Source: Cupriavidus necator (GTDB lineage Bacteria > Pseudomonadota > Gammaproteobacteria > Burkholderiales > Burkholderiaceae). Taken from it: a stretch of 32,000 bases of DNA. The position numbers were made by a program, and so were the translations under genes. The notes under the pieces were generated by a model, which was not told the origin of the DNA, did no database searches, and worked only from the letters and a program-made list of their open reading frames with translations. The stretch lies in assembly GCF_016127575.1 (NCBI RefSeq), contig NZ_CP066018.1, forward strand, positions 3,510,001 to 3,542,000. Direction: 5' to 3'. How positions within the stretch are numbered: position 1 is the first letter of the stretch; each line of letters begins with the position of its first letter. This document shows, one piece after another, positions 10,988 to 32,000 of this stretch.

Positions 10988-11016
10988 GGCAGTCAGGGAA
11001 CGATGTTGAGAGAGTG

Positions 11017-12444: not shown

Positions 12445-12602
12445 TGGACGGGCGTCTCCTGAAGATGGCCGCGCGTGCCGGTATCGGCGCGCGCAGGCGT
12501 GATGGCGATACGCTGGCATCTTACAACCGGCCCGCGCACGCGGGGACTATCGCCGCCAAGTGCCGTCGGCGAGGAAGCGTTCGGCCAGCTACGCGTTGCC
12601 GT

Positions 12603-12818
12603 TCAGGGGCGCGCCGGCGATGACAGGTAGGCCTGCAGGCCGTCTGCCGGCAAGGCGCGTGAAAACAGCCACCCCTGGCCGAACTGCGCGCCGCGCTCTC
12701 GCAGGAAGCGCGCCTGCTGCTCGATGCCCTCGGCCACGACCTCGAATCCCAGCGCCTCCGCCATGGCGATGATGTGCGGCGCCACCGAGCTGGAAGCCGC
12801 CTCGCGGCCGATGGTACT
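12603..12818 (-). pseudogene. 3'-terminal remnant (about 70 codons) of an EAL-domain (c-di-GMP phosphodiesterase) gene
   Basis: The tail of ORF 12603-13067 reads ...VAPHIIAMAEALGFEVVAEGIEQQARFLRERGAQFGQGWLFSRALPADGL. This matches the last conserved EAL blocks (xVVAEGVE...L...G....QG[YW]LFSRP[LM]P). Upstream of about 12818 no frame shows EAL or GGDEF similarity. Confidence 0.6.
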
Positions 12819-13082
12819 ACGCGGCGGCGCTGCTGCGCAGCACGCGCCGTCGCCGCGCGTATTCAGATTCCTTTTGCAAGGCGATGAATTTTTTCGTGCG
12901 CCGCGCAATAAGGCACGCATGACTTGCGCAATGCCGGCAGAATCCGGAAAGTAGGGGGAACGACTGCCCGCACAGAGGACCTGGCCCATGACCACCGCCC
13001 CATTTGCAAGACCCACACCATCGGCCCGGCTTGCCGCCCGGCACACGCCGGCCGTGATCCCGGGCAACGGCTAGGGGGGCGC

Positions 13083-15886
<2,804 letters not shown>

Positions 15887-15887
<1 letters not shown>

Positions 15888-16255
15888 TGGCCGCGCTCTA
15901 CGCCATCACCATCGGCATCCTTGCCGCGGGCGGCATCTACCTGCTGCTGCGCGAGCGCGTCTTCACCGTGGTGCTGGGGCTGACGCTGCTGTCGTATGCG
16001 GTCAGCCTGTTCCTGCTGGGCATGGGGCGCCTGTCGATCGGGCGGCCGCCGGTGATCGTGGCGGGCGCCAGCTATGCCGATCCGCTGCCCCAGGCGCTGG
16101 TGCTGACCGCCATCGTGATCGCGTTCGGCATGACGGCGTTCGCGGTAGTGCTGGCGCTGCGCTCGCTGGGGCTTACCGGCAGCGACCATGTCGACGCCGC
16201 CGGCCAGCCCGACGAGCGCGCCGCCGATGGCGGCAAGCAGGATCCGCGGCCATGA
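15887..16255 (+). CDS. mrpC: Mrp/Pha antiporter subunit C (NuoK-like), 122 aa
   Basis: ATG at 15887 overlaps the mrpA stop (TGATG), with GGAGGA at 15875-15880. It is a three-TM small protein (MAALYAITIGILAAGGIYLLL...LTAIVIAFGMTAFAVVLAL). Confidence 0.88.
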
Positions 16256-17793: not shown

Positions 17794-17796
17794 GCC

Positions 17797-18300
17797 ATGC
17801 TGCAGCGTCTGCTTCCCCATCCGTGGCTGAGCCTGATCCTGATGATCATGTGGCTGTTGCTGACCAACAGCCTGGCCCCCGGGCACTGGTTGCTGGGGGC
17901 GCTGCTGGGCTGGGCCATCGGCCGGCTGGCCGACCGCTGGCTGGTGCTGGGCGCGTTCCGCCTGTCGCGGCCCGACCTGATCCTGCGGCTCAGCATCCAT
18001 GTGCTGTTCGATATCGTGAAAGCCAACGTGGAAGTGGCCATCATGGTGCTGGGCCCCACCGCGCGCCTGCGCCCCGCCTTTATCGTGGTGCCGCTCGATG
18101 TCGAGCACGAGCTTGCCACCACCGCGCTGATCAGCATCGTCTCGCTCAGCCCCGGCACGCTGTGCGCAGAACTGAGCGACGACCGCCGCGCCTTGCTCGT
18201 GCACGTGCTGGACCTGGAGGAAGAGGCCGCGCTGGTCGAGCTCATCAAGTCGCGCTATGAAACCCCGCTCAAGGAGATCTTCCAATGCTTGCCATCGTGA
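17797..18300 (+). CDS. mrpE: Mrp/Pha antiporter subunit E, 167 aa
   Basis: ATG lies 3 nt after the mrpD stop. The N-terminus PHPWLSLILMIMWLLLTNS and the size and position in the operon are typical of MnhE/PhaE. Confidence 0.85.
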   Translation: MLQRLLPHPWLSLILMIMWLLLTNSLAPGHWLLGALLGWAIGRLADRWLVLGAFRLSRPDLILRLSIHVLFDIVKANVEVAIMVLGPTARLRPAFIVVPLDVEHELATTALISIVSLSPGTLCAELSDDRRALLVHVLDLEEEAALVELIKSRYETPLKEIFQCLPS

Positions 18301-18557
18301 TACCGGTCTGCCTGGTGATCCTGGGCCTGGCCTTCCTGCTGACCCTGGCGCGGCTGCTGCGCGGACCCAGCCTGCCGGACCGCATCGTGGCGCTGGACAC
18401 GCTGAATATCAACGCCATCGCGCTGATCGTGGTGCTAGGCATCAGCCTGGATTCGGCGCTGTTCTTCGAGGCCGCGCTGCTGATCGGGGTGATGGGCTTC
18501 GTCGGCACCGTGGCGCTGTCCAAGTACCTGCAGCGCGGCGACATCATCGAATACTAG
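18285..18557 (+). CDS. mrpF: Mrp/Pha antiporter subunit F, 90 aa
   Basis: AAGGAGA at 18271-18277 precedes ATG 18285, with a 16-nt overlap with mrpE. It contains the MnhF motif LLRGPSLPDRIVALDTL. Confidence 0.87.
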   Translation: MLAIVIPVCLVILGLAFLLTLARLLRGPSLPDRIVALDTLNINAIALIVVLGISLDSALFFEAALLIGVMGFVGTVALSKYLQRGDIIEY

Positions 18558-18567
18558 GGAACGCCAG

Positions 18568-18912
18568 ATGCTGCATCCTGTTGCGGAATTCATCGTGTGC
18601 GCGCTGCTGCTGGTGGGCAGCGTGTTCATGCTGGTCGGGGCGGTCGGGCTGTTCCGGCTGCCGGACTTCTTCATGCGGCTGCATGGGCCGACCAAGTCGA
18701 CCACGCTGGGCGTGGGCGGGGTAGTGCTGGCCTCGGTGGCGTACTTCAGCTTCCGGGGCGATGCCAGCCTGCATGAACTGCTGGTGACCGCCTTCATGTT
18801 CCTGACCGCGCCGATCAGTGCCCACATGCTGGCCAAGGCCGCGCTGCAGCGCCAGCTGCCGGTGGATCCGCGCACGCGCGGCAGCGGCTGGATGCCGCGC
18901 ATCCGCGACTAG
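18568..18912 (+). CDS. mrpG: Mrp/Pha antiporter subunit G, 114 aa
   Basis: ATG at 18568 follows AGGGA. It contains the MnhG motifs GAVGLFRLPDFFMRLHGPTKSTTLG and FLTAPISAHMLAKAA. Confidence 0.88.
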   Translation: MLHPVAEFIVCALLLVGSVFMLVGAVGLFRLPDFFMRLHGPTKSTTLGVGGVVLASVAYFSFRGDASLHELLVTAFMFLTAPISAHMLAKAALQRQLPVDPRTRGSGWMPRIRD

Positions 18913-19001
18913 GTATGGCCGCGACGGTTTACTTTCGCCGCAATGTGTCCTACACCCAGTCAGGCGATGCCGGCATCTTCCACGCCAGGGCAGGGGGTTT
19001 C

Positions 19002-19829
19002 ATGGACTTGCAACACTCGGACAAAGTCTTCGCGGGCGCGATTCCGGAAGTCTATGAGGCCCTGATGGTGCCGATGATCTTTGCGCCATACGCTGCCGAC
19101 ATGGCTGCCCGCATCGCCGCGCTGCAGCCGCGCCGGGTGCTGGAACTGGCCGCCGGCACCGGCGTGCTGACCCGGGAAATCGCCGGGCGGCTGCCGGCCG
19201 AGACCCTGATCGTTGCCACCGACCTCAACGCGCCGATGCTGGCGCGGGCGGAGCAGGCCGGCACGAGCCGCCCGGTGCACTGGCGCGAGGCCGACGCCAT
19301 GGCGCTGCCGTTCGCCGATGCCAGCTTCGATATGGTCGCCTGCCAGTTTGGCGTGATGTTCTTCCCCGAAAAGGGCCGCGCCTTCGCCGAAGCCCGCCGC
19401 GTGCTGGTGCCGGGCGGCACCCTGATCTTCAATGTCTGGGACCAGCTGGAATTCAACGCCTTTGCCCGCGATGTCACCGGGGCACTCGCCACGCTGTTTC
19501 CCGACGCACCGCCCGAGTTCATGGCCCGCGTACCGCATGGCTACCACAGCCAGGCCGCGATCGAGCAGGACCTGCGCCTTGGCGGATTCCAGTCCTCCCC
19601 GGTCTTTGAAACCGTCGCGGCAACCAGCCGCGCCAGCGCCGCCCGCATCCCGGCGGTGGCATTCTGCCAGGGCACGCCGCTGCGCGCCGACCTGGAGCGG
19701 CGCGGGCCGGATGCGCTCGGCCGGGCAACCGACCATTGCGAACAGGCGCTCCTGGAGGCTTATGGCGACGGGCCATTGGCCGGTCCGATGCAGGCGCACG
19801 TGGTGATGGTAACGGCGCCCGCCGGATAA
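19002..19829 (+). CDS. Class I SAM-dependent methyltransferase, 275 aa
   Basis: ATG at 19002 (MDLQHSDKVF...) follows a G-run. SAM-binding motif I is VLELAAGTGVLT; post-I is VATDLN, followed by FDMVACQFGVMFF and LVPGGTLIFNVW. The 29-codon extension to 18915 in the track has no support. Confidence 0.85.
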   Translation: MDLQHSDKVFAGAIPEVYEALMVPMIFAPYAADMAARIAALQPRRVLELAAGTGVLTREIAGRLPAETLIVATDLNAPMLARAEQAGTSRPVHWREADAMALPFADASFDMVACQFGVMFFPEKGRAFAEARRVLVPGGTLIFNVWDQLEFNAFARDVTGALATLFPDAPPEFMARVPHGYHSQAAIEQDLRLGGFQSSPVFETVAATSRASAARIPAVAFCQGTPLRADLERRGPDALGRATDHCEQALLEAYGDGPLAGPMQAHVVMVTAPAG

Positions 19830-19937
19830 AGCTGCCCGCCAGTTGGTCGCAGGTCATCGCTGGGCGTGCGCAAATCGCCGCTTGCGCCGATACTGTAGCC
19901 AGGCTCATGACGACTACAGGACCCTTGGGCGGTGGCC

Positions 19938-20142
19938 ATGGACTCTATGATCATTTCCGCATCGGTGGCACTGGGCATCGGCCTGGCGATCGGGCTGGAG
20001 CGCGAGCGCAGCCAGGCCGCCGCCGGGAAAGATCGTGGCATCCGCGGCGGGCGGCCTGCGCTTCACCGTGCCGGTCGCGATCGGATTGGTGCTGTCGACC
20101 AGCGCCACCTGGGCAGTGGCCTGGCTGCAGCGCTTGGATTGA
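19938..20142 (+). pseudogene. Frameshifted, truncated N-terminal remnant of an MgtC/SapB- or DUF4010-type membrane protein gene
   Basis: ATG 19938 gives MDSMIISASVALGIGLAIGLERERSQAAAGK, which carries the GLERE motif of the MgtC N-terminal domain. The expected continuation (AAGGLRFTVPVAIGLVLSTSATWAVAWLQRLD*) is in the +1 frame from about 20044 and stops at 20140-20142. At most about 65 codons of a normally 150-430 aa protein remain. Confidence 0.35.
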
Positions 20143-20211
20143 GGCAGCATGCATGGTCGGCTACCATCAGCGCGGCGCGGTCCGGATTCCCCTGGCGCGC
20201 ATTGTCGGACG

Positions 20212-21864
20212 ATGACTACGATGCCCCTTGTACGCGTGCTCGCGATCGGTCTGCTGATAGGTTTGCTGGCGGGATGCGATTTCCTGCGCGGCTACGCTGA
20301 GGGCGAATCCGAGGTCATGCGGGACTTCCGGGCCGGGGATCGTGCCGATGACCTCGGGGCGGCGCGCTTTGTCTTCGATGACTTCGGCGGCCTGAGCACC
20401 GATACCCTTGAGACCAATGCGCTACCGTGGAAGCTGGCAACGACCGCACTGCTGCTGGCCGGCGGCCCCAACGTTCCGGTCACTCAGGACGCCTTGCGCC
20501 GGGCCCTGCGCGAGTTTGGCTTCATCTATCCCGATGCGATCCGCAACTGGCCGCGCCAGCAACAGCCCAGGTTCGACAAGCCCCTGGGCGTGGTCAGCGG
20601 AGTGATCGGCCGGGATCTCCCGAAGATCCGCCTGGAAGTGTCCAACCTGGGATGCGCATCGTGCCATGCGGGCATCACCTACGACATGGACGGGCGTCCC
20701 ACCAACGATGTCTGGCTGGGCCTGCCGAATACCTCCCTCAACCTCGATGCCTTCGTCACCGCGGTCTATCAGGCGGTGAAGCAGGTGAAATCCGATCCGG
20801 AAAAGCTCCTCTCCGCCATCCACCAGCTTTACCCCGAAACCAGCAACGAGGAACTGGATACCATCCGGAAATTCGTCTGGCCGCGGCTGGTAAAACGGGT
20901 GGCGGAACTCGAAGCCAGCGGTGACGAGCCGCTGCCGTTCAGCAACGGCGCGGCCGGCAGCACCAATGGGGTCGCGGCACTCAAGTTCCAGTTTCATCTG
21001 CTCTCGGCGGGCACGGCCGCCAGTGGTTCCACCTCGATTCCGGAACTGGGCTACCGCAGCCTGCGCTCATCGCTGCTCTATGACGGCGTCTATACCAGCA
21101 AGGGCGCGCCGCGCTTTGCGCCAGTGGCACCCGGTGCCGCCAACGATGCCGGGCGGCTGGCGCATATCGTGGCCTTCTTCACCGTGCCGACCATGGGCAT
21201 GCCACCGGATCGCGCCGTCCGTGCGATTCCGCAGGTGGAAGACGTCATGCGGTTCATGGCGGGCTACACCCCGCCGCCGTTTCCGGGGCCGGTTGACCGC
21301 TCCCGCGCCGCGCGCGGCCGCGCCGTCTTTGATGCCAACTGCGCCCAGTGCCATGGCAGCTACAGCCAGGACCCAGAGCGCCCGCGCCTTGTCAGCTTCC
21401 CCAACCGGCTGGTGGCACAGGCGGATATCGGGACTGACCCGACGCGCTGGCAAGCAATCGATCCCGGCCTGCTGCAAGCCATCTCGCGCTCCGAGCTGGG
21501 CAGGCATATCGACGCGGCAAACACCAGTGGCTATGTCGCGCCCATCCTCTCCGGCGTGTGGGCGACGGCACCATACCTTCATAACGGCTCCGTGCCCACG
21601 CTCTGGCATCTCATGCATCCGCAGGCGCGGCCCAGGCGCTTCTGGGTCGGAGGCCATGCCCTGGACTACGACAAGCTGGGCATCGCCGGCAGGCTCGATG
21701 CGGCCGGTACCTGGACCTATCCGGCCAGCTACCGGCCGTGGTCGAAACCCGTGCTCTACGACACGGCGACGGCGGGGCGCGACAACCGCGGCCACGAGAA
21801 GGAATTCTCGACCCTTGCCGAAAGCGACAAGGATGCGCTGCTGGAATTCCTGAAATTGCTCTAG
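20212..21864 (+). CDS. Di-haem c-type cytochrome lipoprotein, CCP/MauG/RoxA-like C-terminal domain, 550 aa
   Basis: Lipoprotein signal MTTMPLVRVLAIGLLIGLLAG|C (lipobox LLAGC). There are two haem c sites, CASCHAG and CAQCHGS. The distal-ligand region SGVWATAPYLHNGSVPTLWHLM and the tail GHEKEF...LLEFLKLL resemble di-haem peroxidase-like oxidoreductases. The start could also be the Met at 20221. Confidence 0.7.
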   Translation: MTTMPLVRVLAIGLLIGLLAGCDFLRGYAEGESEVMRDFRAGDRADDLGAARFVFDDFGGLSTDTLETNALPWKLATTALLLAGGPNVPVTQDALRRALREFGFIYPDAIRNWPRQQQPRFDKPLGVVSGVIGRDLPKIRLEVSNLGCASCHAGITYDMDGRPTNDVWLGLPNTSLNLDAFVTAVYQAVKQVKSDPEKLLSAIHQLYPETSNEELDTIRKFVWPRLVKRVAELEASGDEPLPFSNGAAGSTNGVAALKFQFHLLSAGTAASGSTSIPELGYRSLRSSLLYDGVYTSKGAPRFAPVAPGAANDAGRLAHIVAFFTVPTMGMPPDRAVRAIPQVEDVMRFMAGYTPPPFPGPVDRSRAARGRAVFDANCAQCHGSYSQDPERPRLVSFPNRLVAQADIGTDPTRWQAIDPGLLQAISRSELGRHIDAANTSGYVAPILSGVWATAPYLHNGSVPTLWHLMHPQARPRRFWVGGHALDYDKLGIAGRLDAAGTWTYPASYRPWSKPVLYDTATAGRDNRGHEKEFSTLAESDKDALLEFLKLL

Positions 21865-21870
21865 CTGCCG

Positions 21871-22878
21871 TCAGGAATCCTGCAGCAGTTCCGCGACTGG
21901 GAGCCGGGCGCTTTGCGCAATGCCACGGTCCGGCACCGGCCCGAAGCGCATCACATTGACGAGCCGATTCCCCCGCGGCAAGCGCTGGCTTTCGGCAAGC
22001 ATGGCGGCATGGCCAGGTGAATCGGCCAGTGCCGACATCGGCACGCCGGCAAAGCCCCTGGCAGTCATGGCCAGCCAGAACCGGTACCAGCGGCGCCCGA
22101 TATCAAAGCTCGTGACCTCGGGTGCGGCATGGATCAGGACGATCCGCGCCGCGCTTTTCACTTTTGCGCTTTCCGATGTCAGCAGGCGGGTCAGCGAAAG
22201 CGCCGAGAGCAGCCGGAGCACACGAGGTCTCAGCGCAATTGACGCGCCCCAGGCTTCCCACCGCGACAGTGCCATGCATTCGGCCGAAAGCCCGTCGCGC
22301 GGCCAGCCTGGATCGTGCGGTGACAAGCGCAGCCAGTGGTAAAGCTCCTCGGCAAACCGCGGGTCATTCAATCCCGCAGCCGCGGCGTCGTCATACCATC
22401 TGGCGATTTGCGCCGTGCTGTTCTCGCTGGCCAGCGTGACGAACTCCGCGTGGGCCGCAGCGCATTCGCCCAACGACCTGATCTGCGCCGGGGTCGCACG
22501 GAGAAACTTGCCTCGATAGGCGCGGCGCGCGTCCACGAAGGCGGCAAGGGGATCCGGGCTTGCGCCAGATGTGATCAGGCCGGATGCGGCCGGGCGCAGA
22601 CCCTGGGCAGCGGGAGGGTAGGGCAGGCCGGAGACCACGGGCTGCGTGAGCCCCAACCCGAGCGTCGACAACGCCATGGCCATGCCTTCCCAGGCCATGC
22701 CCAGGGCGATCTGGTTGTCCCGCCCGGTGGGGTCGCCCACGGACAGCCATCGCGCAGGGTCTTCAAGCAGTTCAACCTTGTCGCCGGCAAAGCGCCAGCG
22801 CGCGGGCTGGATATTGTGCGCGCTGGGAGCGCGGCCAGCCTGTGCAAGCAGGGTGAGATGCTGATCGCGCGTGAGCAT
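21871..22878 (-). CDS. Nitroreductase-superfamily protein, Acg-like two-lobed type, 335 aa (cassette gene 5)
   Basis: ATG at 22878 (MLTRDQHLTLLAQAGRAPSAHNIQPARWRF). RAPSxHNxQP(W/A)RF is the N-terminal flavin-site motif of nitroreductase-fold proteins, and the roughly 330 aa length fits the Acg-type duplicated fold. The start lies 4 nt after the upstream stop. The track ORF is 74 codons over-extended. Confidence 0.7.
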   Translation of the reverse strand: MLTRDQHLTLLAQAGRAPSAHNIQPARWRFAGDKVELLEDPARWLSVGDPTGRDNQIALGMAWEGMAMALSTLGLGLTQPVVSGLPYPPAAQGLRPAASGLITSGASPDPLAAFVDARRAYRGKFLRATPAQIRSLGECAAAHAEFVTLASENSTAQIARWYDDAAAAGLNDPRFAEELYHWLRLSPHDPGWPRDGLSAECMALSRWEAWGASIALRPRVLRLLSALSLTRLLTSESAKVKSAARIVLIHAAPEVTSFDIGRRWYRFWLAMTARGFAGVPMSALADSPGHAAMLAESQRLPRGNRLVNVMRFGPVPDRGIAQSARLPVAELLQDS

Positions 22879-22882
22879 GTCG

Positions 22883-23992
22883 CTAGATGGCCTTTTTGAA
22901 GAGATGCAGCCGATGCAGTGGCCTGGCGCCCATCTTCTCCATTTGCTTCTGGCTGGCGCCATTCGAATCCGACACCCAGCTGATGCCCAGGTGCGAGTAC
23001 CCGGCACCGCGCATCGCCGTGAGCAGATGGTGCAGCATGACGCCGTTGACGCCGCGGCTGTGGTAGTCCCTGCGCACGGAAAAGAAGATGATCGCCGCAC
23101 GCTTGCGGCTGGCGCGGAACCTGATCAGATGCCAGAGCGTGGACAGCTTCAGGCGGAAGCCGGTGGCGCGCAGAAACGGGTTGAGATCCGGCACGCACAG
23201 CAGCACCCCGACCGGCTCCCCGTTGAAATAAGCGGTATAGGACAGCCGCTCGTCGATGATCCACATCATGCCGGCGCAGGGAAACAGGAATTCCTCCTCC
23301 GTCAGCGGCACGAACATCGGGTTGCCGGAGAAACCATCGTTCAGGACAGCGCATGCCTCCAGCAGGCGCCGGTCAAAGCCGCGTCGCCGGATCGGCTTGA
23401 ATTGCCAGGCGGGATCATCCAGCAGCGCGCGTTGCTTGTTGCCGATCAACTGCTGCGGATCGTAGCTGCGCACGTCGAGCTCGAACGTGCGCATCGGAAA
23501 GAACGGCTCGAAGCCGCATGCCCGGAGCAGCCTGGCAATATGCGGCGGCGTGTATTCCTGGTAGGTGTATGGCGGATGCTCGAAGCCCTCGGTGACGATG
23601 CCGATCATCTGCGTGATCGTCAGGTTGAAGCTGCCAGCCAGTTCGTCACAGCCGTTGCGCTTCACCCAGGCCGCCGCCGCGTCGAGCAGCGCTTGCGCGA
23701 CCTCCACGTCATCGACGCAGTCGAACATGCCGAAGCAGCCGCGCTTCTGAGCGTATTGCTGGTTGGATGCATCGTGGATATGGGCCAGGATACGGCCCAC
23801 GATCCGCCCGTCCCGATGGGCGGTGAACCAGGTGCGGCGCGCAAACTGCCGGAACAGCGGGTTCTTCGCCGGGTCCAGCGCGCGCGCAAGATCCCCCTTC
23901 ATCGGCGAGACAAAATGCGTATCGCGGCCATAGCAGGCAAACGGCGCCTCGAAGAACGCGTCGAAATCGCCTTCACGCAGCACGGTTGTCAT
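22883..23992 (-). CDS. Large GNAT-fold N-acyltransferase-like protein, 369 aa (cassette gene 4)
   Basis: GGGAGG SD 4 nt before ATG 23992, and ATGA overlap with the upstream stop. The N-terminal half (DPAKNPLF...AHRDGRIVGRILAHI...GCFGMFDCVDD...EGFEHPPYTYQEYTPPHIARLL) matches a widespread family of about 380 aa annotated only as GNAT acetyltransferases. The C-terminal GNAT core is VRRDYHSRGVNGVMLHHLL...ISWVSDSNGASQKQMEKMGA. Confidence 0.7.
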   Translation of the reverse strand: MTTVLREGDFDAFFEAPFACYGRDTHFVSPMKGDLARALDPAKNPLFRQFARRTWFTAHRDGRIVGRILAHIHDASNQQYAQKRGCFGMFDCVDDVEVAQALLDAAAAWVKRNGCDELAGSFNLTITQMIGIVTEGFEHPPYTYQEYTPPHIARLLRACGFEPFFPMRTFELDVRSYDPQQLIGNKQRALLDDPAWQFKPIRRRGFDRRLLEACAVLNDGFSGNPMFVPLTEEEFLFPCAGMMWIIDERLSYTAYFNGEPVGVLLCVPDLNPFLRATGFRLKLSTLWHLIRFRASRKRAAIIFFSVRRDYHSRGVNGVMLHHLLTAMRGAGYSHLGISWVSDSNGASQKQMEKMGARPLHRLHLFKKAI

Positions 23993-25212
23993 GCCGCCTC
24001 CCGCTGCCCGAGATGGCGCGCCAGCCGCAGGATCACCGCCGCGCGCAGCTCGCCGATCGCCGCGTTGGCGCCTTGCGGCAGGTTCAGCAACACCACCTGC
24101 GCGGGCTGGCGCGCGATCAGCAGGGCATGGGTCATTTCATGGCGCTCGAGCAGGTCTACCAGCTGTTCCGCGGCCTCGACCCGATCGCCTTCCCGGATCC
24201 TGGTCCACGCCCTGGCGTCGCCGATCGACACGGGCTCCCGCCGCTTTCCGGCCAGGTCGAACAGCGCGTCGAGGGCGTAATCAGCAAGCTCCGTGTTGCC
24301 GAGCACCACATGGTCGGCGGTTTGCGGCAGGCGCCTGAGCGAATGCAGGAAACCCTCTGGCGTATCCAGCCGGGCATGGAGCAGCCAGCGCAGGAACGCG
24401 TTGCCATCACCGGCCAGCGAAACGGCGCGAATGCGGACAAAAATGGCCGTCAGCAGCACCCATGCAATGGCAACCGGCATGCTGCGCAGGCCCGCCTCGG
24501 CAAAGCCCGGGCCGGGCCCGCGCGAAGCCAGCGCCATCACGCTGGCCAGCACGACGGCGAAGAGCAGGGCGGCTGCGATATGCACCAGCAGCCCGCGCAC
24601 GACCCGCCGCGATTCCGACAGGTTCAGGAACACATAGACGAATGCCAGCGCCCCGAGCGCCCCCAGGCGAACCGGCACATGGCCGAGCTCCTCGCGGAAG
24701 TCGGTGGCCGCGAGCGGGACGGCCAGGGCCACGACCACCACTACCGCCCGGGCCAGGCGTGCCTCGTTGTCGGACAGCTCGGCATCGCGCAGCCACAGCA
24801 GGAACCAGCCATTGCTTGCGGTCACCACGGCGAAGCAGCCAAGGAACATCAGCAGCAGCGGCGTATTGCCCGACAGATCGGTAAAGAGATTGATGACGAA
24901 GAACACCACCGACACGCCCAGCGCCAGCAGCTTAAGCCACAACGGGTGGTGGCGCCGCACCAGGTGCTCGGCAAACAGGGTCATGGCAATGGGCAACAGG
25001 GTTGCCGCTGCAAACACCAGTTGCGCCAGCAGCGTGCCGCCAATCAGCCAGGAAAAGCCCCGGACTGCCAGCAGTGCCGTCAGCACCCCGAACAGGAACA
25101 GGCCCGTGCCGGCCCCGGCCTCGCGCCGGGACCAAAGGAAATGCAGGCAGAGCCCGCAGCCCACCGCGCCGAGCCAGGTAACGGCGACATCGCTTGCCAG
25201 GGCGTCAATCAC
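23989..25212 (-). CDS. Polytopic membrane protein (about 8-9 hydrophobic helices) with a soluble C-terminal domain of about 150 aa, unknown family, 407 aa (cassette gene 3)
   Basis: I prefer GTG at 25212 because it forms a GTGA overlap with the ThiF-like stop and has a GAGGA SD 6 nt upstream. The TTG at 25218 in the track has no spacer to that SD. Residues 1 to about 260 are successive hydrophobic helices. Residues about 260-407 are charged or amphipathic (..LDTPEGFLHSLRRLPQTADHVVLGNTELADYALDALFDL..) with no motif I recognise. Confidence 0.65.
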   Translation of the reverse strand: MIDALASDVAVTWLGAVGCGLCLHFLWSRREAGAGTGLFLFGVLTALLAVRGFSWLIGGTLLAQLVFAAATLLPIAMTLFAEHLVRRHHPLWLKLLALGVSVVFFVINLFTDLSGNTPLLLMFLGCFAVVTASNGWFLLWLRDAELSDNEARLARAVVVVVALAVPLAATDFREELGHVPVRLGALGALAFVYVFLNLSESRRVVRGLLVHIAAALLFAVVLASVMALASRGPGPGFAEAGLRSMPVAIAWVLLTAIFVRIRAVSLAGDGNAFLRWLLHARLDTPEGFLHSLRRLPQTADHVVLGNTELADYALDALFDLAGKRREPVSIGDARAWTRIREGDRVEAAEQLVDLLERHEMTHALLIARQPAQVVLLNLPQGANAAIGELRAAVILRLARHLGQREAA

Positions 25213-26099
25213 GCGCAATCCTCATCTCGCATCAACCTCGCCATGAAGCGCCGTACCAGCGCGCGCACGGCCCATGCCGTCAGCGCATTGCGCGGCGTCT
25301 CGACACGCATGGTCCAGGGATTGAAGAAGTAGCCGCGCACACCGGCCAGCCGCCGCCGACCGAGCACCAGCTTGATCACCTCGAACGCCATCAGGTTGCC
25401 GGTGGTGATCACCATCGGCGCAAACGACATGCGCTTGCGCTTGCCGGTCAGCAGGTCCTTGGCGATGCCGAGCTCCACATGCCGGACCGAACTCGAGTTG
25501 ACCATCACATATTCCAGTTCCTTGCCCAGGCATTCCTGCCTGAGCTCCGGCGTCAGGGACTTCCAGTCAATGCCGGCCGTGGGATAGGAAAGACGCTCCT
25601 CGGGCCTGGGATCTTGCGGACGGACAACCGTGACGGAGGGCAGGGGAGCGGTATAGGCGTCGATGACGGTCGCACCATGCTCCCGCGCCTTGCGATAGAG
25701 CGCGAGGCCCGCGGCCATGTCATCCATGCCGTTGACCACGATCTTGTAGCGGCCCAGCAGGTCGTCGAGCCTGTCGGTCCACTCGGCGCCGAAGGTCTCG
25801 ATGGCAAGTTCCGGGTTGATGCGCCGGATCTGCGCCACGGTGGCCTCGACCTTGTTCACGCCAACGGTATCCAGGCTGGCAAACACCTGGCGGTTCAGGT
25901 TCGACACGTCGAACGCATCGAAGTCCGCCAGCGCAAAGCCGCCAATGCCCACCCGTGCCAGCGCCTGCAGGCAGGCGCCGCCCATGCCGCCGACGCCACA
26001 GATCAGCACCCGTGCATTGCGCAATTGCTGCTGTTCCGCGTCGGTCACGAAACCGATGTTGCGGGTCGTGAATTCCTCGTAGGAGAACGGTGGAATCAT
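25209..26099 (-). CDS. ThiF/MoeB/HesA-family (E1-like) adenylyltransferase, 296 aa (cassette gene 2)
   Basis: ATGA overlap with the upstream stop and an AGGAAG SD. Motifs present are the Rossmann ATP loop VLICGVGGMGG, the E1 signature LADFDAFDVSNLNRQ, VGVNKVEA, the Mg/adenylate Asp region VVNGMDDM, and the late helix FAPMVITTGNLMAFEVIKLVLG. There are no CxxC zinc motifs. Confidence 0.85.
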   Translation of the reverse strand: MIPPFSYEEFTTRNIGFVTDAEQQQLRNARVLICGVGGMGGACLQALARVGIGGFALADFDAFDVSNLNRQVFASLDTVGVNKVEATVAQIRRINPELAIETFGAEWTDRLDDLLGRYKIVVNGMDDMAAGLALYRKAREHGATVIDAYTAPLPSVTVVRPQDPRPEERLSYPTAGIDWKSLTPELRQECLGKELEYVMVNSSSVRHVELGIAKDLLTGKRKRMSFAPMVITTGNLMAFEVIKLVLGRRRLAGVRGYFFNPWTMRVETPRNALTAWAVRALVRRFMARLMRDEDCA

Positions 26100-27049
26100 T
26101 GACTCTTCCTAGCGCGCAGGTCTCCCAGCGGCTCGCGCGGATTCAGCCAGTGGAACAATGGCAGGACGATCCGACCGACAGCCAGGAACGCAATCTGATA
26201 AAGGATGGCGGGCAACGAGTCCCGAGGCACTTCCCGCAACAGGTATTTCCGCGCGCTGGCCAGGTCCAGGCAGGCGACCTGCAGGAAATCGTCGCCGCGC
26301 TGGTAATCGAGTTCCCGCCGGCAGAGTTCGTTGGCGCGCTCGTCCCGATGCTTCGGCGCCTGCTCGAACGTTTTCTTGAGATTGTCCGAGCCGCCGGTAT
26401 AGGCATCGGTAATCACGAACCGCGCCTCGTCAAATCCCGCCGCCCCGTCAACGCCAAAGACATGCCGATGCGATTTCATGATCTCGCGGGCCACGCTCAG
26501 GTGTTCAAAGCTGCGCCGCGACGGCTCAAAGGGATTGGGATAGGCCGTGACAAAGACCTCGGCGACCTTGCCGATAATCGCCGGCACCTGGGTCACATTG
26601 CTGATCCAGATCGGGCGCAGGCCGCGGCGGAAGAAAAGCAGGATGCAGGTCAGCCCGTACAGCACCCAGGACAGTCCTTGCGTGCGATAGCCCGGATCGA
26701 CCATCACCAGCCCAAGGTGAATCGCCTCGACCGGGCGGGCCTTGACCTCGATCGGCATGACCGACAGCGCATTGAACGCAATCGGCTGGCCGCTGTCCCG
26801 GTCATAAAGCAGCGTGATCACGGCCCGCCGCAGCCTTTCAGGATCGCCGGAAAGCACCCCGTAATCGAGGTCCTTGCCGATTCCCCGCTGCACGATGCCG
26901 CGCATCTCGGCCAGCATGGCTTCGAGCTGCCGGGCATCCATCCACAAGCCGGGCCGCTCGACGACCCGGATCCGGACGGACCGGCTGGCCTTCAGGCTCA
27001 GGTCCAGGTAGCGCAGCCGTTGTCGAAAATGCCCGATGAATTTGAACAT
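26096..27049 (-). CDS. Atypical GNAT-like acyltransferase-fold protein, 317 aa (cassette gene 1)
   Basis: ATG at 27049 (MFKFIGHFRQRL...); the TTG at 27097 is an alternative, and neither has a strong SD. The only recognisable element is a GNAT motif-A-like strand-helix, AIHLGLVMVDPGYRTQGLSWVLYGL. The rest is unfamiliar to me. Confidence 0.55.
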   Translation of the reverse strand: MFKFIGHFRQRLRYLDLSLKASRSVRIRVVERPGLWMDARQLEAMLAEMRGIVQRGIGKDLDYGVLSGDPERLRRAVITLLYDRDSGQPIAFNALSVMPIEVKARPVEAIHLGLVMVDPGYRTQGLSWVLYGLTCILLFFRRGLRPIWISNVTQVPAIIGKVAEVFVTAYPNPFEPSRRSFEHLSVAREIMKSHRHVFGVDGAAGFDEARFVITDAYTGGSDNLKKTFEQAPKHRDERANELCRRELDYQRGDDFLQVACLDLASARKYLLREVPRDSLPAILYQIAFLAVGRIVLPLFHWLNPREPLGDLRARKSQ

Positions 27050-27266
27050 GCAGGTTTGGCTGGTGCCTTGTTCTTGTGTCGCCGGCCTGAAAGGCAAGTG
27101 TGGCTTGGAGCATATAACAGCACGTCCCCGGTGTCACGGGCGGGACAAAGCAAGCGCAGGGGGGCGGGCGTTCGCCTTTAGAACTCCGAGGGGCGGATCA
27201 GCGGCGTTGTGCGTCCACGACAACCCCACTTTCCGCTGAGGTTTCCGGCATAAGCAGCAATGCTAA

Positions 27267-27485
27267 GCTCACACGCCCACCGACGTGCGGCCCTACGTGG
27301 TGGTAAAGACCACGCTGAAGGATGCATCGGGCGCTCAGGTATGGAGCACCCGGTATATCTCCGCTAGCGCCGAGGCAAAGCCCTTCACCGGTGACAACGG
27401 CTGGTTCAAGGATGATGCCCGCCCGCTCAGGCTTGCCCTCGAGCAATCGCTCAAGCGCAGCATCGACGTAATGCTGCGCGACGTC
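27267..27485 (+). pseudogene. 3' fragment of an unidentified (soluble or lipoprotein-like) gene, fused in frame to an IS transposase tail
   Basis: The frame opens after TAA 27264-27266 and reads ..RPYVVVKTTLKDASGAQVWSTRYISASAEAKPFTGDNGWFKDDARPLRLALEQSLKRSIDVMLRDV. There is no credible start or SD and no family assignment. Confidence 0.25.
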
Positions 27486-27617
27486 GGACGGCTTCGACAA
27501 ACTGTATATCGTGGCCTCGAACGCGTGGACCAACACTTCAAGCTGACGATGATCGCCAGCAATTTGACCCGAATTGCACGAATACTGGCTGCGGTGCCGC
27601 GAGGAGCGGTGCAATGA
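27486..27617 (+). mobile_element. C-terminal remnant (about 43 codons) of an IS5/IS1182-type DDE transposase
   Basis: GRLRQTVYRGLERVDQHFKLTMIASNLTRIARIL resembles the conserved transposase tail (G-L-R-R-x-R-Y-R-G-L-x-K-V...A-x-N-L-x-R-[IL]). No upstream DDE catalytic region is present in any frame. Confidence 0.45.
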
Positions 27618-27732
27618 GCGGCCAAAGCGGGGCTGCCGCACGGCGCCATGCTGGCGCGCCTCGGAATTGGGGCACCCAATTGCATGGCATGGTAGGAATT
27701 CAGCGGCCATTTGCATGTTGAGTCGTGTTTAG

Positions 27733-28017
27733 CTGCGCTGCGCCCTTCGTGACGGAGTGCTTTTCAACAGCCTGCTAGAGCGCGACCTGGAGGACGCCAT
27801 CCTGCGCGAGCTGGAGCATTTTCTGCTGGAACTCGGAGCAGGCTTCACCTTTGTTGCTTGCCAGAAGCGGCTGCAGATTGACAACGACGACTTCTATATC
27901 GACCTGCTGTTCTACAATCGCCGGCTCAAACGCCTGGTGGCGATCGAGATGAAGCTGGGCGAGTTCAAGGCCGCCGACGAGGGACAGATGGAGCTCTACC
28001 TTCGCTGGCTCGCCAAG
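27733..28017 (+). pseudogene. Internal fragment of a YhcG-type PDDEXK nuclease (DUF1016) gene
   Basis: ERDLEDAILRELEHFLLELGAGFTFVACQKRLQIDNDDFYIDLLFYNRRLKRLVAIEMKLGEFKAADEGQMELYLRWLAK contains the PD-(D/E)xK core (D...IDLLFY...IELK-like IEMK) of DUF1016. The N-terminal half of about 200 aa is absent, and similarity ends after RWLAK. Confidence 0.6.
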
Positions 28018-28263
28018 CAGCGCAAGCCGCAGGCCATCGAAGATCCACCAGCCCACGCCCTTGTCAACACGGCCTGGGCGCCAGAAGCTGGCCAGAATAC
28101 CGGCCAGAAAGCCGTGCGATACGAAAGCAAAGAAACGGGTGAGACGCGTTCATATAGATTGCCCCATGACGGGCGCGCTGATACCCCTACCCGGGGCAGT
28201 GCAGAAGATCTCTGGCTCGGCTGGGCCTCAACTTGACTTTCGGAGATGCTCAGCCGCGGCCCA

Positions 28264-29355
28264 TCATGACGCCTGCCCCAGCGCGCGCATGGTCGCCCCG
28301 ACCAGAGGGGCCTTGAGCTTGAGCGCACGATTCTCTACCAGATGCCACGACAGCACCGCAAGCGCCAGCGTCACGACACCGGAAGACAGGAGCAACATCA
28401 TGACTGAGATGCCTGGAAACAAGGCGACGATCGACTGCTGGATCGGGAAGGCGTAGATATAGATGCCATACGAAAAGTCGCCCAGGCGGTTGTAGCGGAA
28501 CAGGGCAGGTAACTGAAGAAACGCTGCAAAAAGCACCAGGTATGGCATTGCCAACAGGTACATCAGCGCGAACACATGGTGATTCGGCACGAAGGCGCTG
28601 CCGACGACGGCGGCGAGCAGCAGCCCCGCGACGGGAGCGGACAGTTCCACGTGCGCGCTTAGGATGAACAGGCTGGCGCCCGCGAAGAACATCAGCGGCA
28701 ATGCTGTCTTCTGCATTGCAGAGCCGCCGAGGATTGCGAAGACGCAATACAGGAACGAGGCCGCCGTGACCACCAGTACCGCCGCACGGAACGCGCGCTG
28801 GTGAGCGGGCCATGCGACCATGGAGATGACCCATATCGCGGCCAGTGCGAAGTACATTCGGATCTCGTACATCATGGTCCACAGCGAGCCATTCACCGTA
28901 TCCGGATACGGATTGATCGCGAATACACCGGGCAAGGGATAGACTGCGCCGGCGACCAGCGTGGTCGTCTTCAGCAAGAACTGGCGCGTTGCCGGATCGA
29001 TGAGGTATGCAGAGGCCGGCAGCGCCGTGAACACCATGCCCAGGCCGAACACCACCAGCGTGACCATGACAAGCAGCGCCGGATAGATCCGCAGGAAGCG
29101 CGCCCACAGGAACTCGAGCACGCTTCCGCGCGTCAGCAGGCTTTTGGTCACGAGGAAGCCGCTGGTGACGAAAAACACGTCGACGGCAATCGTTCCGGGG
29201 GTCACCCCGATCAGCCTGCGCAAGGGCTCGTCATTGACGTCGCCGGAGACCAGTGAGTAACTGTGGGTGACAAGCACAGCGAGCGCGGCTGTGATCCGCA
29301 TCAGGTTGAAATTGTTTTCGTCCTTTCTTCCCCCGGCGACGTGCGCGAGCCTCAT
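28264..29355 (-). CDS. Acyltransferase family 3 (OafA/YrhL-type membrane O-acyltransferase), 363 aa
   Basis: ATG at 29355 (MRLAHVAGGRKDENNFNLMRITAALAVLVTHS) follows a GGGGGG SD. The family motifs NxxxxxR...A.xVxxxH and VDVFFVTSGFLV are present, in about 10 TM helices. Confidence 0.88.
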   Translation of the reverse strand: MRLAHVAGGRKDENNFNLMRITAALAVLVTHSYSLVSGDVNDEPLRRLIGVTPGTIAVDVFFVTSGFLVTKSLLTRGSVLEFLWARFLRIYPALLVMVTLVVFGLGMVFTALPASAYLIDPATRQFLLKTTTLVAGAVYPLPGVFAINPYPDTVNGSLWTMMYEIRMYFALAAIWVISMVAWPAHQRAFRAAVLVVTAASFLYCVFAILGGSAMQKTALPLMFFAGASLFILSAHVELSAPVAGLLLAAVVGSAFVPNHHVFALMYLLAMPYLVLFAAFLQLPALFRYNRLGDFSYGIYIYAFPIQQSIVALFPGISVMMLLLSSGVVTLALAVLSWHLVENRALKLKAPLVGATMRALGQAS

Positions 29356-29705
29356 ATGCCCCCCTTTTTCATTAAGCCGGCCTCGGTTGACGGAACGACG
29401 CCGACAGCTTCCGCTAGCTTCCGGCAAGCATAGACCGCAGTCTGGGCAGAATCAGGCGCATGTCCGATAGCGCCGAGGGATTGGCGGAATAGCCAGTGAG
29501 GCGAACGGCGGTGTCGTATCGCGCCGACACGGCAACCGTTGCTGCCGATGCGACTCTCGGCCGACTTTCTTACCCCGCGCATGCGCGCGACGTCCGTCAA
29601 TATCCGCCAAGTTCTCGGCACTTCCGGACAGGCGGCCGTTCCTGTCAGCCTTAGAAGCTATGATGCAAGCGGAAAATCGACCAGCACTGGATGGAGGCGG
29701 CAGCG

Positions 29706-29768
29706 ATGAAACATCCCGGCAACCCGTTGAAGGCCGTGATCGATGCTGAGCCAGGCAGGCCATCGTGA
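29706..29768 (+). CDS. Candidate 20-codon upstream ORF translationally coupled to the beta-helix gene
   Basis: GGAGG at 29693-29697 lies 8 nt before ATG 29706. The ORF reads MKHPGNPLKAVIDAEPGRPS, and its TGA (29766-29768) overlaps the GTG start (29765-29767) of the next gene as GTGA. There is no homology evidence. Confidence 0.25.
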   Translation: MKHPGNPLKAVIDAEPGRPS

Positions 29769-31060
29769 AGTCATCCCTACGCAGAGCCTGCGTCGCAGGC
29801 ACCATGCTGGCAGGTCTGGTCGCGGGTACTGTCGCCGTATTGACCGGTAGTCCGCGAGCTTCGGTCCGCGCGTTCGCCGCGGTAGGCGCGACGGCCGATG
29901 TATCGGTGCAGCCTGCACCCGGCGGCGCAGACCAGGCAGATAGCCTGCAGGCGGCGCTCGACAACCTGCAGGCGGGACAGCGCCTGGTGCTGGCGCCGGG
30001 CACCTATGTGGTGGGCCACGTGCTTGCAGTGCGCGGCGAGCAGGTTGTGGTATCGGGCTATGGCGCGACGCTGGTCGCCACGAACCCTGACGAGCAGGCC
30101 ATCATGATGACTGGCGCGAACTCGACGCTGGTTGGCGTGACGCTGACGGGCATCGGCACGCAGCGGCTCGAGTCGGCCACGTCGACCAAGGTCGCCGTGG
30201 ACGGACAGGGCATCCAGGTGCTCGATGTCAACATCAATGGCGGTGCGAGTGTCGGCATCTTTGTCTCGCGCGGCAGCAGCATTGCGCTGGTCGGCAACAA
30301 GGTCCATGGCACGCTGGCCGACGGCATCCACATCACAGGCGGTTCACGCGACGTGCTCGTGCAGGACAACGCGGTCACCGCCACCGGCGACGACATGGTG
30401 GGGATCGTCAGCTACCAGCGGGACGGTGTGCTCAGCCAGAACATCTACGTATCGGGAAATTATCTGGCAGGCAACGCGTGGGGCAGGGGCGTTGCTATCG
30501 TCGGCGGTGCCGACGTGACGGTCGCCGGCAACCGGATCGAAGGTGTGCAGAAGGCTGCGGCGGTGCTGGTGGCGCAGGAGGATGGCTACCGTACGGCCAG
30601 CGTGACCAATGTCCTGGTCGCGAACAATATCATCTCCGACGACCAGAACGCGACACAACCTGGGAACGACCGTCCCGCCGCAGGCCATGCAGCTATCGAC
30701 ATCAACACGGGCAGCGGAGCAGTGACGCAGGTACTGGTGACGGGAAACCAGGTAACGCGCGCGAGGTTCGACGGATTCCGGGCCATGAACAATGTTTGCG
30801 GCGTCCGCGTCTCAGGCAACCGCTTTGCTGCGATCGGTGGCCTCGCCCTGTCGCTGCAGTACCGAAACTGTACGGCGACGCAGTTTATCTGCGACGCCAA
30901 TACGCTCGATGGTGTGAGCCTCGCAGCCCCACCAGGATGTTCCAGCGCGGGCACCATCCCGATTTCCGGCGCGGACGCGGGCCGCCTGCCGCCGGTGCGT
31001 ACCTCCCTGCGCCAAGGCCTGCAGGCCTCGATGCCAGCGTGCCAGGCACGCTCGGGTTGA
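29765..31060 (+). CDS. Secreted right-handed parallel beta-helix repeat protein (pectate-lyase fold; probable polysaccharide lyase/hydrolase), 431 aa
   Basis: N-terminal signal-like segment MKSSLRRACVAGTMLAGLVAGTVAVLTGSPRASVRAFA. It is followed by periodic beta-helix coils of about 22-25 aa (..GVTLTG.., ..VNINGG.., ..VGNKVHG.., DGIHITGGS.., VQDNAV.., VSGNYL.., VAGNRIEG.., VANNII.., VTGNQV.., VSGNRF..). The start is uncertain: GTG 29765 or ATG 29804. Confidence 0.8.
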   Translation: MKSSLRRACVAGTMLAGLVAGTVAVLTGSPRASVRAFAAVGATADVSVQPAPGGADQADSLQAALDNLQAGQRLVLAPGTYVVGHVLAVRGEQVVVSGYGATLVATNPDEQAIMMTGANSTLVGVTLTGIGTQRLESATSTKVAVDGQGIQVLDVNINGGASVGIFVSRGSSIALVGNKVHGTLADGIHITGGSRDVLVQDNAVTATGDDMVGIVSYQRDGVLSQNIYVSGNYLAGNAWGRGVAIVGGADVTVAGNRIEGVQKAAAVLVAQEDGYRTASVTNVLVANNIISDDQNATQPGNDRPAAGHAAIDINTGSGAVTQVLVTGNQVTRARFDGFRAMNNVCGVRVSGNRFAAIGGLALSLQYRNCTATQFICDANTLDGVSLAAPPGCSSAGTIPISGADAGRLPPVRTSLRQGLQASMPACQARSG

Positions 31061-31114
31061 GGGAAGCCCACGCACAGCGCTTCGCCCCCGGTTGGCGCAA
31101 TCTGCGCAAGATGG

Positions 31115-32000
31115 TCACCTGACCCGCGGCGTTTCCGCCAACAGTTGCAGCAAGTATCTGCCGTAGTGGCTTTTTACGAGCGGGGAGGCGAGCCGACTCA
31201 ACTGCTCTGCATCGATCCAGCGATGACGGTACGCGATTTCTTCCGGGCATGCCACCATCAGCCCCTGGCGCTTCTGCAACGTGGAGACCAGCAGCGCCGC
31301 CTCGATGAGCGAATCATGCGTGCCGGTGTCGAGCCAGGCATAGCCGCGGCCCATGATGTCGACGCTTAGCTTGCCCGCTGCGAGGTAGCGCGAATTGATG
31401 TCGGTAATCTCCAGTTCGCCGCGGGCAGATGGCCGGATATCTGCCGCAATGTCGCACACCTCATGGTCGTAAAAGTACAGACCGGTCACCGCATAGCTGG
31501 ACCGTGGCGAAGCGGGCTTTTCCTCGATCGACAATGCGCGGAAGTCTTCATCGAATTCGACCACGCCATACCGCTCGGGATCGTGGACGTGATAGGCAAA
31601 TACCGTGGCGCCTTCCTCGCGTCGGCTCGTCCGGGTCAGTTGTCTGGCGAGATCGTGCCCATAGAAAATGTTGTCGCCGAGGATCAGCGCCGATGGATCC
31701 CGGCCGACAAACTCACGTCCGATGATAAATGCCTGCGCCAGCCCATCGGGCGAAGGCTGTTCCGCGTACCGGATGTCGAGACCCCACTGGCTGCCATCAC
31801 CGAGCATGCCGGCAAAGCGAGGGGTGTCCTGCGGGGTGGAAATGACCAGCACGTCGCGAATGCCGGCAGTCATCAACGTTGACAGCGGGTAGTAGATCAT
31901 CGGCTTGTCGTAGACCGGCAGCAGTTGCTTGGAAACGCTCTGCGTGACCGGATACAGTCGGGTGCCGGATCCACCGGCCAGAATGATGCCTTTTCGGGTC
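31115..32000 (-). CDS. rfbA: Glucose-1-phosphate thymidylyltransferase (RmlA/RfbA); the 5' end lies just beyond the right edge of the window
   Basis: The in-frame reverse complement up to the window edge reads (T)[55 protein letters not shown]... This is the canonical RmlA N-terminus, and the C-terminal region [15 protein letters not shown] is also present. The Met at 31900 in the track is internal. Confidence 0.93.

Follow-up and report, generated by a model that had tools for sequence, protein, structure and literature searches.

A conserved ThiF, flavin-oxidase and acyltransferase cassette in Cupriavidus necator as a possible split relative of N-acyl-oxazolone lipid pathways

What is made by a tightly packed bacterial cassette that encodes a ThiF-like adenylating enzyme, two GNAT-fold proteins, a polytopic membrane protein and an Acg-type flavin-dependent oxidase? 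Such a cassette, with five genes on the minus strand, lies at positions 21871-27049 of a 32,000-nucleotide stretch of Cupriavidus necator DNA (contig NZ_CP066018.1, positions 3,510,001 to 3,542,000; hereafter, the window is this whole stretch). An initial annotation, made from the letters alone, had concluded that the cassette fits no pathway. This does not hold for the enzymatic core, as the trio of ThiF-like enzyme, Acg-type oxidase and N-acyltransferase follows the published logic of N-acyl oxazolone and N-acyl dehydrotyrosine biosynthesis. The enzymatic core has published precedent and the cassette is not a categorically new system. On balance, and with a little better than even confidence, we regard the cassette as a split, expanded relative of the pathway to N-acyl-oxazolone and N-acyl-dehydro-amino-acid lipids.

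The five genes (coordinates from the list of open reading frames) are named g1 to g5 below, and are given together with a sixth, convergent gene and a promoter candidate.

26096-27049, minus strand: g1, 317 aa, GNAT-fold acyltransferase of an uncurated family
25209-26099, minus strand: g2, 296 aa, ThiF/E1-like adenylating enzyme
23989-25212, minus strand: g3, 407 aa, GTG start, membrane protein
22883-23992, minus strand: g4, 369 aa, protein with a C-terminal GNAT domain
21871-22878, minus strand: g5, 335 aa, Acg-type flavin-dependent oxidase
20221-21864, plus strand: gene for a RoxA-like di-haem c-type lipoprotein, 547 aa, convergent with g5
27109-27137, minus strand: candidate sigma-70-like promoter, with GTGACA and TATGCT separated by a 17-nt spacer, some 60 nt ahead of the g1 start

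The junction read-out reproduced exactly the start/stop overlaps described initially (ATGA at 26096-26099 between g1 and g2, GTGA at 25209-25212 between g2 and g3, and ATGA at 23989-23992 between g3 and g4) and the 4-nt gap between g4 and g5 (22879-22882). Shine-Dalgarno-like strings are also present as described, with AGGAAG before g2, GAGGA before g3, GGGAGG before g4 and a weak AAGG before g5. The initial proposal of a single operon is borne out by the recurrence of the same tight order and overlaps across genera, with overlaps of 4-17 nt seen in Arenimonas, in a metagenome-assembled genome (MAG) from ENA and on a Shinella plasmid. The motif-level calls made at the outset (an E1-type enzyme, two GNATs, a nitroreductase-fold protein and a membrane protein) all hold. 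The promoter candidate is the sole promoter-like match in 20000-27800, but one match is also expected from shuffled sequence, so it is a weak one.

Biosynthesis of N-acyl oxazolones combines an N-acyltransferase, a cyclase that is ThiF-like and ATP-dependent, and a flavin-dependent oxidase that is Acg-like and belongs to the nitroreductase superfamily. In proteobacteria other than Cupriavidus, oxazolones are induced by antibiotic and by oxidative stress. The described systems are OxzAB from Pseudoalteromonas rubra, Skermanella aerolata and others, of which the S. aerolata cluster has been characterised experimentally (de Rond et al. 2021); TyzABC from M. tuberculosis (Rv2336, Rv2338c and Rv2337c), which acts in N-acyl tyrazolone biosynthesis (Grigg et al. 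2023); and TrzAS (Rv1356c/Rv1355c), from M. tuberculosis as well (Kleetz et al. 2025). Split operons of NAS, ThiF and nitroreductase genes were proposed in 2025 for N-acyl dehydrotyrosines, namely the kyonggic acids (Massilia), thalassotalic acids (Thalassotalea) and stieleriacines (Stieleria), and in these groups the ThiF and nitroreductase genes are absent where the products are saturated only.

The links between the cassette and these systems come from g2 and g5. The g2 protein matches the ThiF domain (PF00899, E=1e-39) over residues 13-270 of 296, shows an E1 fold with structure matches to MccB, PaaA, Cap2 and E1 enzymes (E 1e-8 to 1e-13), and carries an aspartate, D126, at the position of the catalytic Asp130 in E. 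coli MoeB. Among NCBIfam models, PRK08223 fits it best, with an alignment over the full length, and the ThiF domains of ThiF-flavin-oxidase fusions match this same model above its cut-off. Approximately 14 such fusions, 590-690 aa in length, are found among the 150 nearest cluster representatives of g2. The protein is also 46% identical over 123 aa to the Rossmann half of S. aerolata OxzB, a stronger match than the one to MoeB. The g5 protein matches the Acg-family FMN oxidoreductase model NF047509 over its full length (E=1.3e-39, under the NCBI cut-off) and weakly matches Acg from M. smegmatis (PDB 2ymv). It additionally matches the flavin-oxidase halves of the Rv1355c (TrzS; PRK07877) and PRK14851 fusion models, such that g2 and g5 each match their own half of both fusion families. 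An Acg-like oxidase fused to the ThiF enzyme or encoded beside it is a feature of oxazolone clusters, and g5 provides one here, within the same operon.

The acyltransferases were assigned at different levels. No Pfam or NCBIfam model matches g1 by sequence, and its GNAT assignment is at the fold level only, from an AlphaFold model (pLDDT 70) with Foldseek matches to NatD, AAC(2') and YhbS at E ~5e-5; a few g1 homologues match a GNAT Pfam model weakly, and the motif R122-x-x-G125-x-S127 is invariant in the family. The g4 protein has a recognisable GNAT domain at residues 246-355 (PF00583, E=7e-12), which was matched by 15 of 15 orthologues, and a conserved N-terminal region of approximately 245 aa. 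PGAP names it 'GNAT family N-acetyltransferase'. Profile searches against the PDB returned only marginal, generic GNAT matches for both proteins. At three canonical oxzAB loci (L090-L092), a FeeM-type synthase gene (PF13444/PF21926) lies immediately upstream of oxzB. This position beside the ThiF gene is filled in the cassette by a GNAT-fold acyltransferase of another family.

Like the cassette, TyzABC and the split NAS operons have a separate acyltransferase (~320 aa), ThiF protein (~300 aa) and single-domain Acg-like oxidase (~340 aa) in an operon-like arrangement, with the catalytic Asp of ThiF conserved; the likeness in gene sizes and arrangement is drawn from published descriptions. In the Massilia-type split operons the ThiF and oxidase genes are dispensable for the simpler product, which parallels the loci, described below, that carry g1 and g3 only. 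Unlike these systems, the cassette has acyltransferases that do not resemble FeeM or acyl-homoserine lactone (AHL) synthases by sequence or profile, places a membrane protein with nine transmembrane (TM) helices and a second GNAT protein between ThiF and oxidase, and is linked to a periplasmic di-haem lipoprotein. OxzAB and TrzAS share with it the same two catalytic domains, ThiF and Acg-like flavin oxidase. These are fused in OxzB and TrzS, with a FeeM-type partner upstream, whereas the cassette encodes them as separate proteins, with a partner of another family and three further conserved genes. A match to a characterised cluster, which was initially held to count against a novel module, is thus found in part: the trio of ThiF, oxidase and acyltransferase matches, but the acyltransferase family differs and g3, g4 and the di-haem gene are extra. 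A literature search on ThiF, nitroreductase, GNAT and RoxA combined found nothing relevant.

By this reading, g1 would use a fatty acyl thioester to N-acylate an amino acid or a similar amine. Homology to OxzB, TyzB and TrzS suggests that g2 would then adenylate the carboxylate of the g1 product with ATP, allowing the amide oxygen to close an oxazolone (azlactone) ring, and homology to TyzC and to the flavin-oxidase domain of TrzS suggests that g5 would set the C-alpha/C-beta double bond with O2. More speculatively, g4 might add or transfer a further acyl group, or open the azlactone onto an acceptor. The obligate linkage of g3 to g1 points to a role for g3 in handling the lipid at the inner membrane, where export or flipping is favoured and sensing is the alternative. 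The di-haem lipoprotein may oxidise the product in the periplasm, by analogy with di-haem enzymes that oxygenate lipid double bonds. The chemistry proposed initially, namely ATP-dependent carboxylate adenylation, GNAT-type acyl transfer and flavin redox tailoring, is the one that the closest characterised systems carry out, on small lipid-like molecules.

Several observations weigh against an oxazolone-type pathway. The score of g2 against PRK08223 is 130 bits, compared with a cut-off of 266, and the C-terminal half of g2 gave no BLASTP alignment to S. aerolata OxzB. Similarity between g5 and the flavin-oxidase domain of S. aerolata OxzB is weak (E ~0.01). The two genes are neither adjacent nor fused, lying two genes apart. 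Neither acyltransferase could be identified as a FeeM/OxzA-type synthase: PF13444 and PF21926 were matched at E<=1 by 0 of 29 members of the g1 family and 0 of 15 members of the g4 family, hhalign gave probabilities of 0.1% for g1 (in a profile-profile comparison with three oxzA neighbours) and 0.2% for g4, and BLASTP of g1 against S. aerolata OxzA showed no relationship. Beyond the GNAT fold, nothing specific links g1 to these synthases, and we rejected both proteins as OxzA equivalents. Foldseek likewise places g1 among generic N-acetyltransferases and not among AHL or FeeM synthases. Finally, the oxazolone clusters described so far contain nothing equivalent to g3, g4 or the di-haem protein, and the roles suggested for these three above are drawn from context.

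We examined how widely the genes occur and how firmly they are held together. A species scan for g1 relatives, with one genome per species, placed the family in at least 365 species genomes, among them genomes of Alpha-, Beta- and Gammaproteobacteria, Gemmatimonadota, Acidobacteriota (Thermoanaerobaculia) and one Bdellovibrionota MAG. The g1 homologues (n=2925) are 65-75% identical even across classes, including in Gammaproteobacteria. Architectures were tallied from tblastn searches of the six window proteins against fetched loci, counting the 66 species loci with enough flank.

g1-g2-g3-g4-g5 and the RoxA-like gene: 35 of 66 loci
five genes, with no RoxA-like gene within reach: 6 of 66 loci
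g4 absent (g1-g2-g3-g5): 5 of 66 loci
g1 and g3 only: 20 of 66 loci

All five genes are present in the same tight order in 41 of the 66 loci, and the RoxA-like gene accompanies them in 35 of these 41. The g3 gene adjoins g1 in every evaluable locus (66/66). In 41 loci, or 46 when the g4-less form is counted, g5 is in the same operon as g2, and g4 was seen solely where both g2 and g5 are present. Co-occurrence beyond close relatives had been set initially as the test of the cassette as a unit, and the families were found to co-localise in Alpha-, Beta- and Gammaproteobacteria, Gemmatimonadota and Acidobacteriota. In a neighbour-joining tree of g1, the loci with g1 and g3 only fall into at least three separate clades (Burkholderiales MAGs, Yoonia/Loktanella and Bradyrhizobium), the last two of which sit among full-cassette clades. 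The g1-g3-only clade in Rhodobacterales adjoins two g1-g2-g3-g5 loci that carry neither g4 nor the RoxA-like gene.

The g1 and g3 genes are a self-sufficient core, and g2, g4, g5 and the di-haem gene are a detachable tailoring module. The core is best read as an N-acylation-plus-membrane module. The five g1-g2-g3-g5 loci, which lack g4, indicate that g1 rather than g4 is the acyltransferase that accompanies the ThiF enzyme and the oxidase and would supply their substrate.

Some loci depart from the common arrangements. In three Gemmatimonadota loci (L043, L048 and L075) the order is permuted to g4-g5-g1-g2-g3 with the gene set still together, and in two of these (L048 and L075) g3 is followed, on its own strand, by the RoxA-like gene. 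Three g4-less loci from Steroidobacteraceae and gammaproteobacterial MAGs (L008, L016 and L017) encode, at the g5 position, a flavoprotein that is only 28-30% identical to g5 and whose scores (PF00881 weak, TM1586_NiRdase faint) indicate another type of nitroreductase. The pairing of ThiF with a nitroreductase thus persists there via a diverged or replaced oxidase. In six Yoonia/Loktanella loci (L054, L059, L078, L082, L088 and L089; ~13380-14950), which carry g1 and g3 only, the end of g3 overlaps with a glycerate-kinase-like gene, and the gene that comes next, in convergent orientation, encodes a di-haem peroxidase (CCP_MauG). This peroxidase gene was considered as a member of the system and rejected, as it is not RoxA-like and its synteny is seen among close relatives only.

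The di-haem gene (20221-21864) lies outside the span of the initial annotation, yet it is part of the conserved unit. It is convergent with and adjacent to the cassette in most of the 35 loci that carry it, and on a Bdellovibrionota contig without g2, g4 and g5 (L070) a RoxA-like gene directly follows g1-g3. The encoded protein matches PF21419 (RoxA-like_Cyt-c), NF040606 (E=4e-41) and the structure of RoxA (PDB 4b2n), and it carries CxxCH motifs at residues 145 and 374, an LLAGC lipobox and the string PYLHNGSVP, which a review of rubber oxygenases lists as the MauG motif of RoxB. Polyisoprene and oleate are known substrates for oxygenation by di-haem relatives (PMC6311187, PMC4496055); RoxA/RoxB and the P. 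aeruginosa di-haem enzymes PA2077/PA2078, which are fatty-acid oxygenases, oxygenate C=C bonds in lipophilic substrates outside the cytoplasm. The window protein resembles the RoxA/RoxB rubber oxygenases in its two CxxCH motifs, PYLHNGSVP MauG-type motif and RoxA-like Pfam domain. It differs from them in length (547 aa, compared with 650-812 aa), in being a lipoprotein rather than a secreted protein, and in the linkage of its gene to a biosynthetic operon instead of rubber catabolism. Identity as a rubber oxygenase equivalog was rejected: the protein scores 57-75 bits against RoxA, RoxB and RoxC models with cut-offs of 900-1000, and we class it only as a member of the RoxA-like superfamily.

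Only 6 nt separate the stop codon of the di-haem gene from that of g5 (21864-21871), and in Arenimonas the same pair overlaps by 14 nt. This leaves no room for an intergenic terminator, and the transcripts of the two strands must therefore overlap. A metagenomic protein of 833 aa (P0201) has a ThiF domain 45% identical to g2 that runs into a full-length RoxA-like protein; the latter part is 40% identical to the window protein and retains the signal peptide and lipobox. Whether this is a true fusion or a read-through introduced by gene calling, the ThiF and RoxA-like genes are adjacent on the same strand there. On a Shinella sp. plasmid (NZ_OZ000535.1; L093, 13258-16656), the place of the RoxA-like gene downstream of g5 is taken by a convergent gene for a 1132-aa 'acyl-[ACP]--phospholipid O-acyltransferase'.

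The initial description of g3 as a membrane protein of about 8-9 TM helices with a cytoplasmic domain agrees with its AlphaFold model (pLDDT 86), which, read together with hydropathy, has nine TM helices and a C-terminal soluble alpha/beta domain (residues 285-407). By the positive-inside rule, the N-terminus is predicted to be outside and the C-terminus inside, which would make the domain at 285-407 cytoplasmic. Invariant residues follow TM3 (E82, R86, R87, H88 and K94, on the predicted cytoplasmic face) and TM6 (D171, F172, R173 and R182, on the predicted periplasmic face), and E349, Q350, D353, E356 and H362 of the cytoplasmic domain are nearly invariant. This confident model has no significant fold match in the PDB, the best, non-significant matches being bundles of G-protein-coupled receptors (GPCRs); the g3 profile found nothing among PDB sequences, and the C-terminal domain matches nothing. 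The window protein has no Pfam match and no match to 7TMR-DISM at E<=1. Weak matches to 7TMR-DISM_7TM (PF07695) were obtained for 13 of 35 g3 relatives (best E=9e-5). Compared with 7TMR-DISM receptors, g3 has nine helices instead of seven, and no extracytoplasmic domain is predicted.

The features of g3 bear on a different account of the core, in which g1 would make a diffusible N-acyl signal, g3 would be a seven-TM-type receptor with a novel output domain, and the other genes would alter the signal or quench it. Known signals include N-acyl amino acids and acyl-homoserine lactones, and g1 and g3 are always adjacent and stand alone in 20 of the 66 loci; the conserved cytoplasmic domain, the 7TMR-DISM matches among g3 relatives and the GPCR bundles point the same way. 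We nevertheless consider this account unlikely. The match is missing from g3 of the window, the number of helices is wrong, and profile matches of TM domains at 1e-4 are prone to composition artefacts. Furthermore, g3 has no recognisable kinase, GGDEF or helix-turn-helix output domain, and no conserved regulator gene is found nearby in the neighbourhoods compared. It is similarly doubtful, in our judgement, that the cassette modifies the cell envelope, with an acyl-adenylate or azlactone made by the ThiF enzyme as donor and with g4 and/or g3 transferring the acyl group to lipopolysaccharide, exopolysaccharide or a membrane lipid, so that no free metabolite results. Both azlactones and acyl-adenylates are acyl donors in activated form, g4 is an extra acyltransferase found only with g2 and g5, and the di-haem protein is membrane-anchored via its lipobox. 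The neighbourhoods are suggestive too, with glycosyltransferases, Polysacc_synt and Acyl_transf_3 in Cupriavidus, UDP-glucose dehydrogenase in Arenimonas, and a glycosyltransferase, a polysaccharide deacetylase and the convergent acyl-ACP-phospholipid O-acyltransferase on the Shinella plasmid. These flanking genes vary by genus, however, and with them the link to polysaccharide genes is lost; the cassette itself contains no domain for handling glycosyl groups or phospholipids, and the known oxazolone systems release free small molecules.

A ThiF-like enzyme may also activate the C-terminus of a ribosomal peptide or protein, as E1, MccB or PaaA do, in which case the GNAT proteins would serve in modification or immunity. 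The E1 fold of g2 and its matches to MccB, PaaA, Cap2 and E1 structures are compatible with this, and a GNAT domain confers immunity in the microcin C cluster. We hold it to be very improbable. The ThiF domain of g2 begins at residue 13, leaving no space for the N-terminal peptide-clamp domain of MccB and PaaA, and the nearest non-orthologous relatives of g2 include small-molecule ThiF-flavin-oxidase fusions. Each genus has different genes upstream of g1, and no small open reading frame there is conserved across genera, although frames of fewer than 20 codons were not searched exhaustively. As the initial annotation had noted, a ubiquitin-like partner is missing: there is no stop-to-stop frame of at least 40 aa ending in Gly-Gly within 18001-30000. 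Nor were E2, JAB, YcaO or rhodanese genes found. Three more specific candidates of this kind were rejected. A sulfur-carrier or ubiquitin-like E1 system is disfavoured by the missing Gly-Gly partner, by the lack of a CxxC zinc motif in g2 and by the lack of rhodanese and E2/JAB genes in the conserved neighbourhoods; a defence system, by PADLOC results that comprise generic E1-domain matches for g2 and none for the other four genes; and a microcin C/pantocin-type ribosomally synthesised and post-translationally modified peptide, rejected as unlikely, by the absence of a clamp domain in g2 and of a conserved small open reading frame.

We also note a broader and, in our opinion, improbable view of the core, in which g1 and g3 would be a widespread, unrecognised pair that makes and then presents, exports or senses a lipid-like N-acyl molecule, with the tailoring module converting this molecule to a reactive azlactone that acts as the donor for covalent attachment of the lipid to a target in the envelope or periplasm. 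If true, E1-driven conjugation would have a small-molecule analogue that acts across the inner membrane.

The history of the cassette in Cupriavidus was also considered. All six window proteins are 100% identical in the public assembly GCA_051903385.1, and the nearest named relatives are from Cupriavidus sp. UYPR2.512 (96% for g1) and C. necator (97% for g3). The lower GC content noted initially was found, with a modest offset (65.2% for the cassette compared with 68.6% for bases 1-20000), and GC content at third codon positions (GC3) is 0.77-0.84 in the cassette genes, compared with 0.89-0.91 in the mrp genes. The initial proposal that the module was acquired horizontally is weakly supported by the lower GC3, the patchy phylogeny and the plasmid-borne copies. 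A recent acquisition is not supported, however, because all six genes are common to at least six Cupriavidus species (68-96% identity). The cassette is on a plasmid or chromid in ten records from Ensifer, Shinella and Rhizobium.

Gene remnants lie between the cassette and a set of polysaccharide genes (27198-28236), with GC content down to ~0.60. They include a 110-aa open reading frame on the plus strand (27285-27617), the C-terminus of which may be the end of an IS5-type transposase, and a 159-aa fragment (27757-28236) with a YhcG_C domain (PF06250). The right flank (28264-32000; GC content 0.60-0.65) is an exopolysaccharide-type cluster with genes for Acyl_transf_3, a beta-helix protein, NTP_transferase, Polysacc_synt and GT4 glycosyltransferases. 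In Arenimonas and on the Shinella plasmid, too, the cassette has polysaccharide or lipid genes as neighbours, and so do canonical oxzAB loci.

Oxazolone and N-acyl-dehydro-amino-acid lipids were discovered only between 2021 and 2025. As a probable split, expanded relative of their pathway, the cassette suggests that soil and marine Proteobacteria, Gemmatimonadota and Acidobacteriota harbour a much larger, split and taxonomically broad version, extending to at least 365 species. This version has new parts, namely its own acyltransferase family, an obligate nine-TM partner and a periplasmic di-haem enzyme. Through its membrane and periplasmic components it offers a physiological lead on the site and purpose of oxazolone-type lipids (export, envelope or oxidation), which the two-gene actinobacterial and Pseudoalteromonas systems do not give. 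The Shinella plasmid orthologues of g1, g3 and g5 are named 'hypothetical protein' in RefSeq. If the proposed relationship is true, it would provide a function for three families that carry this name, and would tie a family of RoxA-like di-haem proteins to a biosynthetic pathway.

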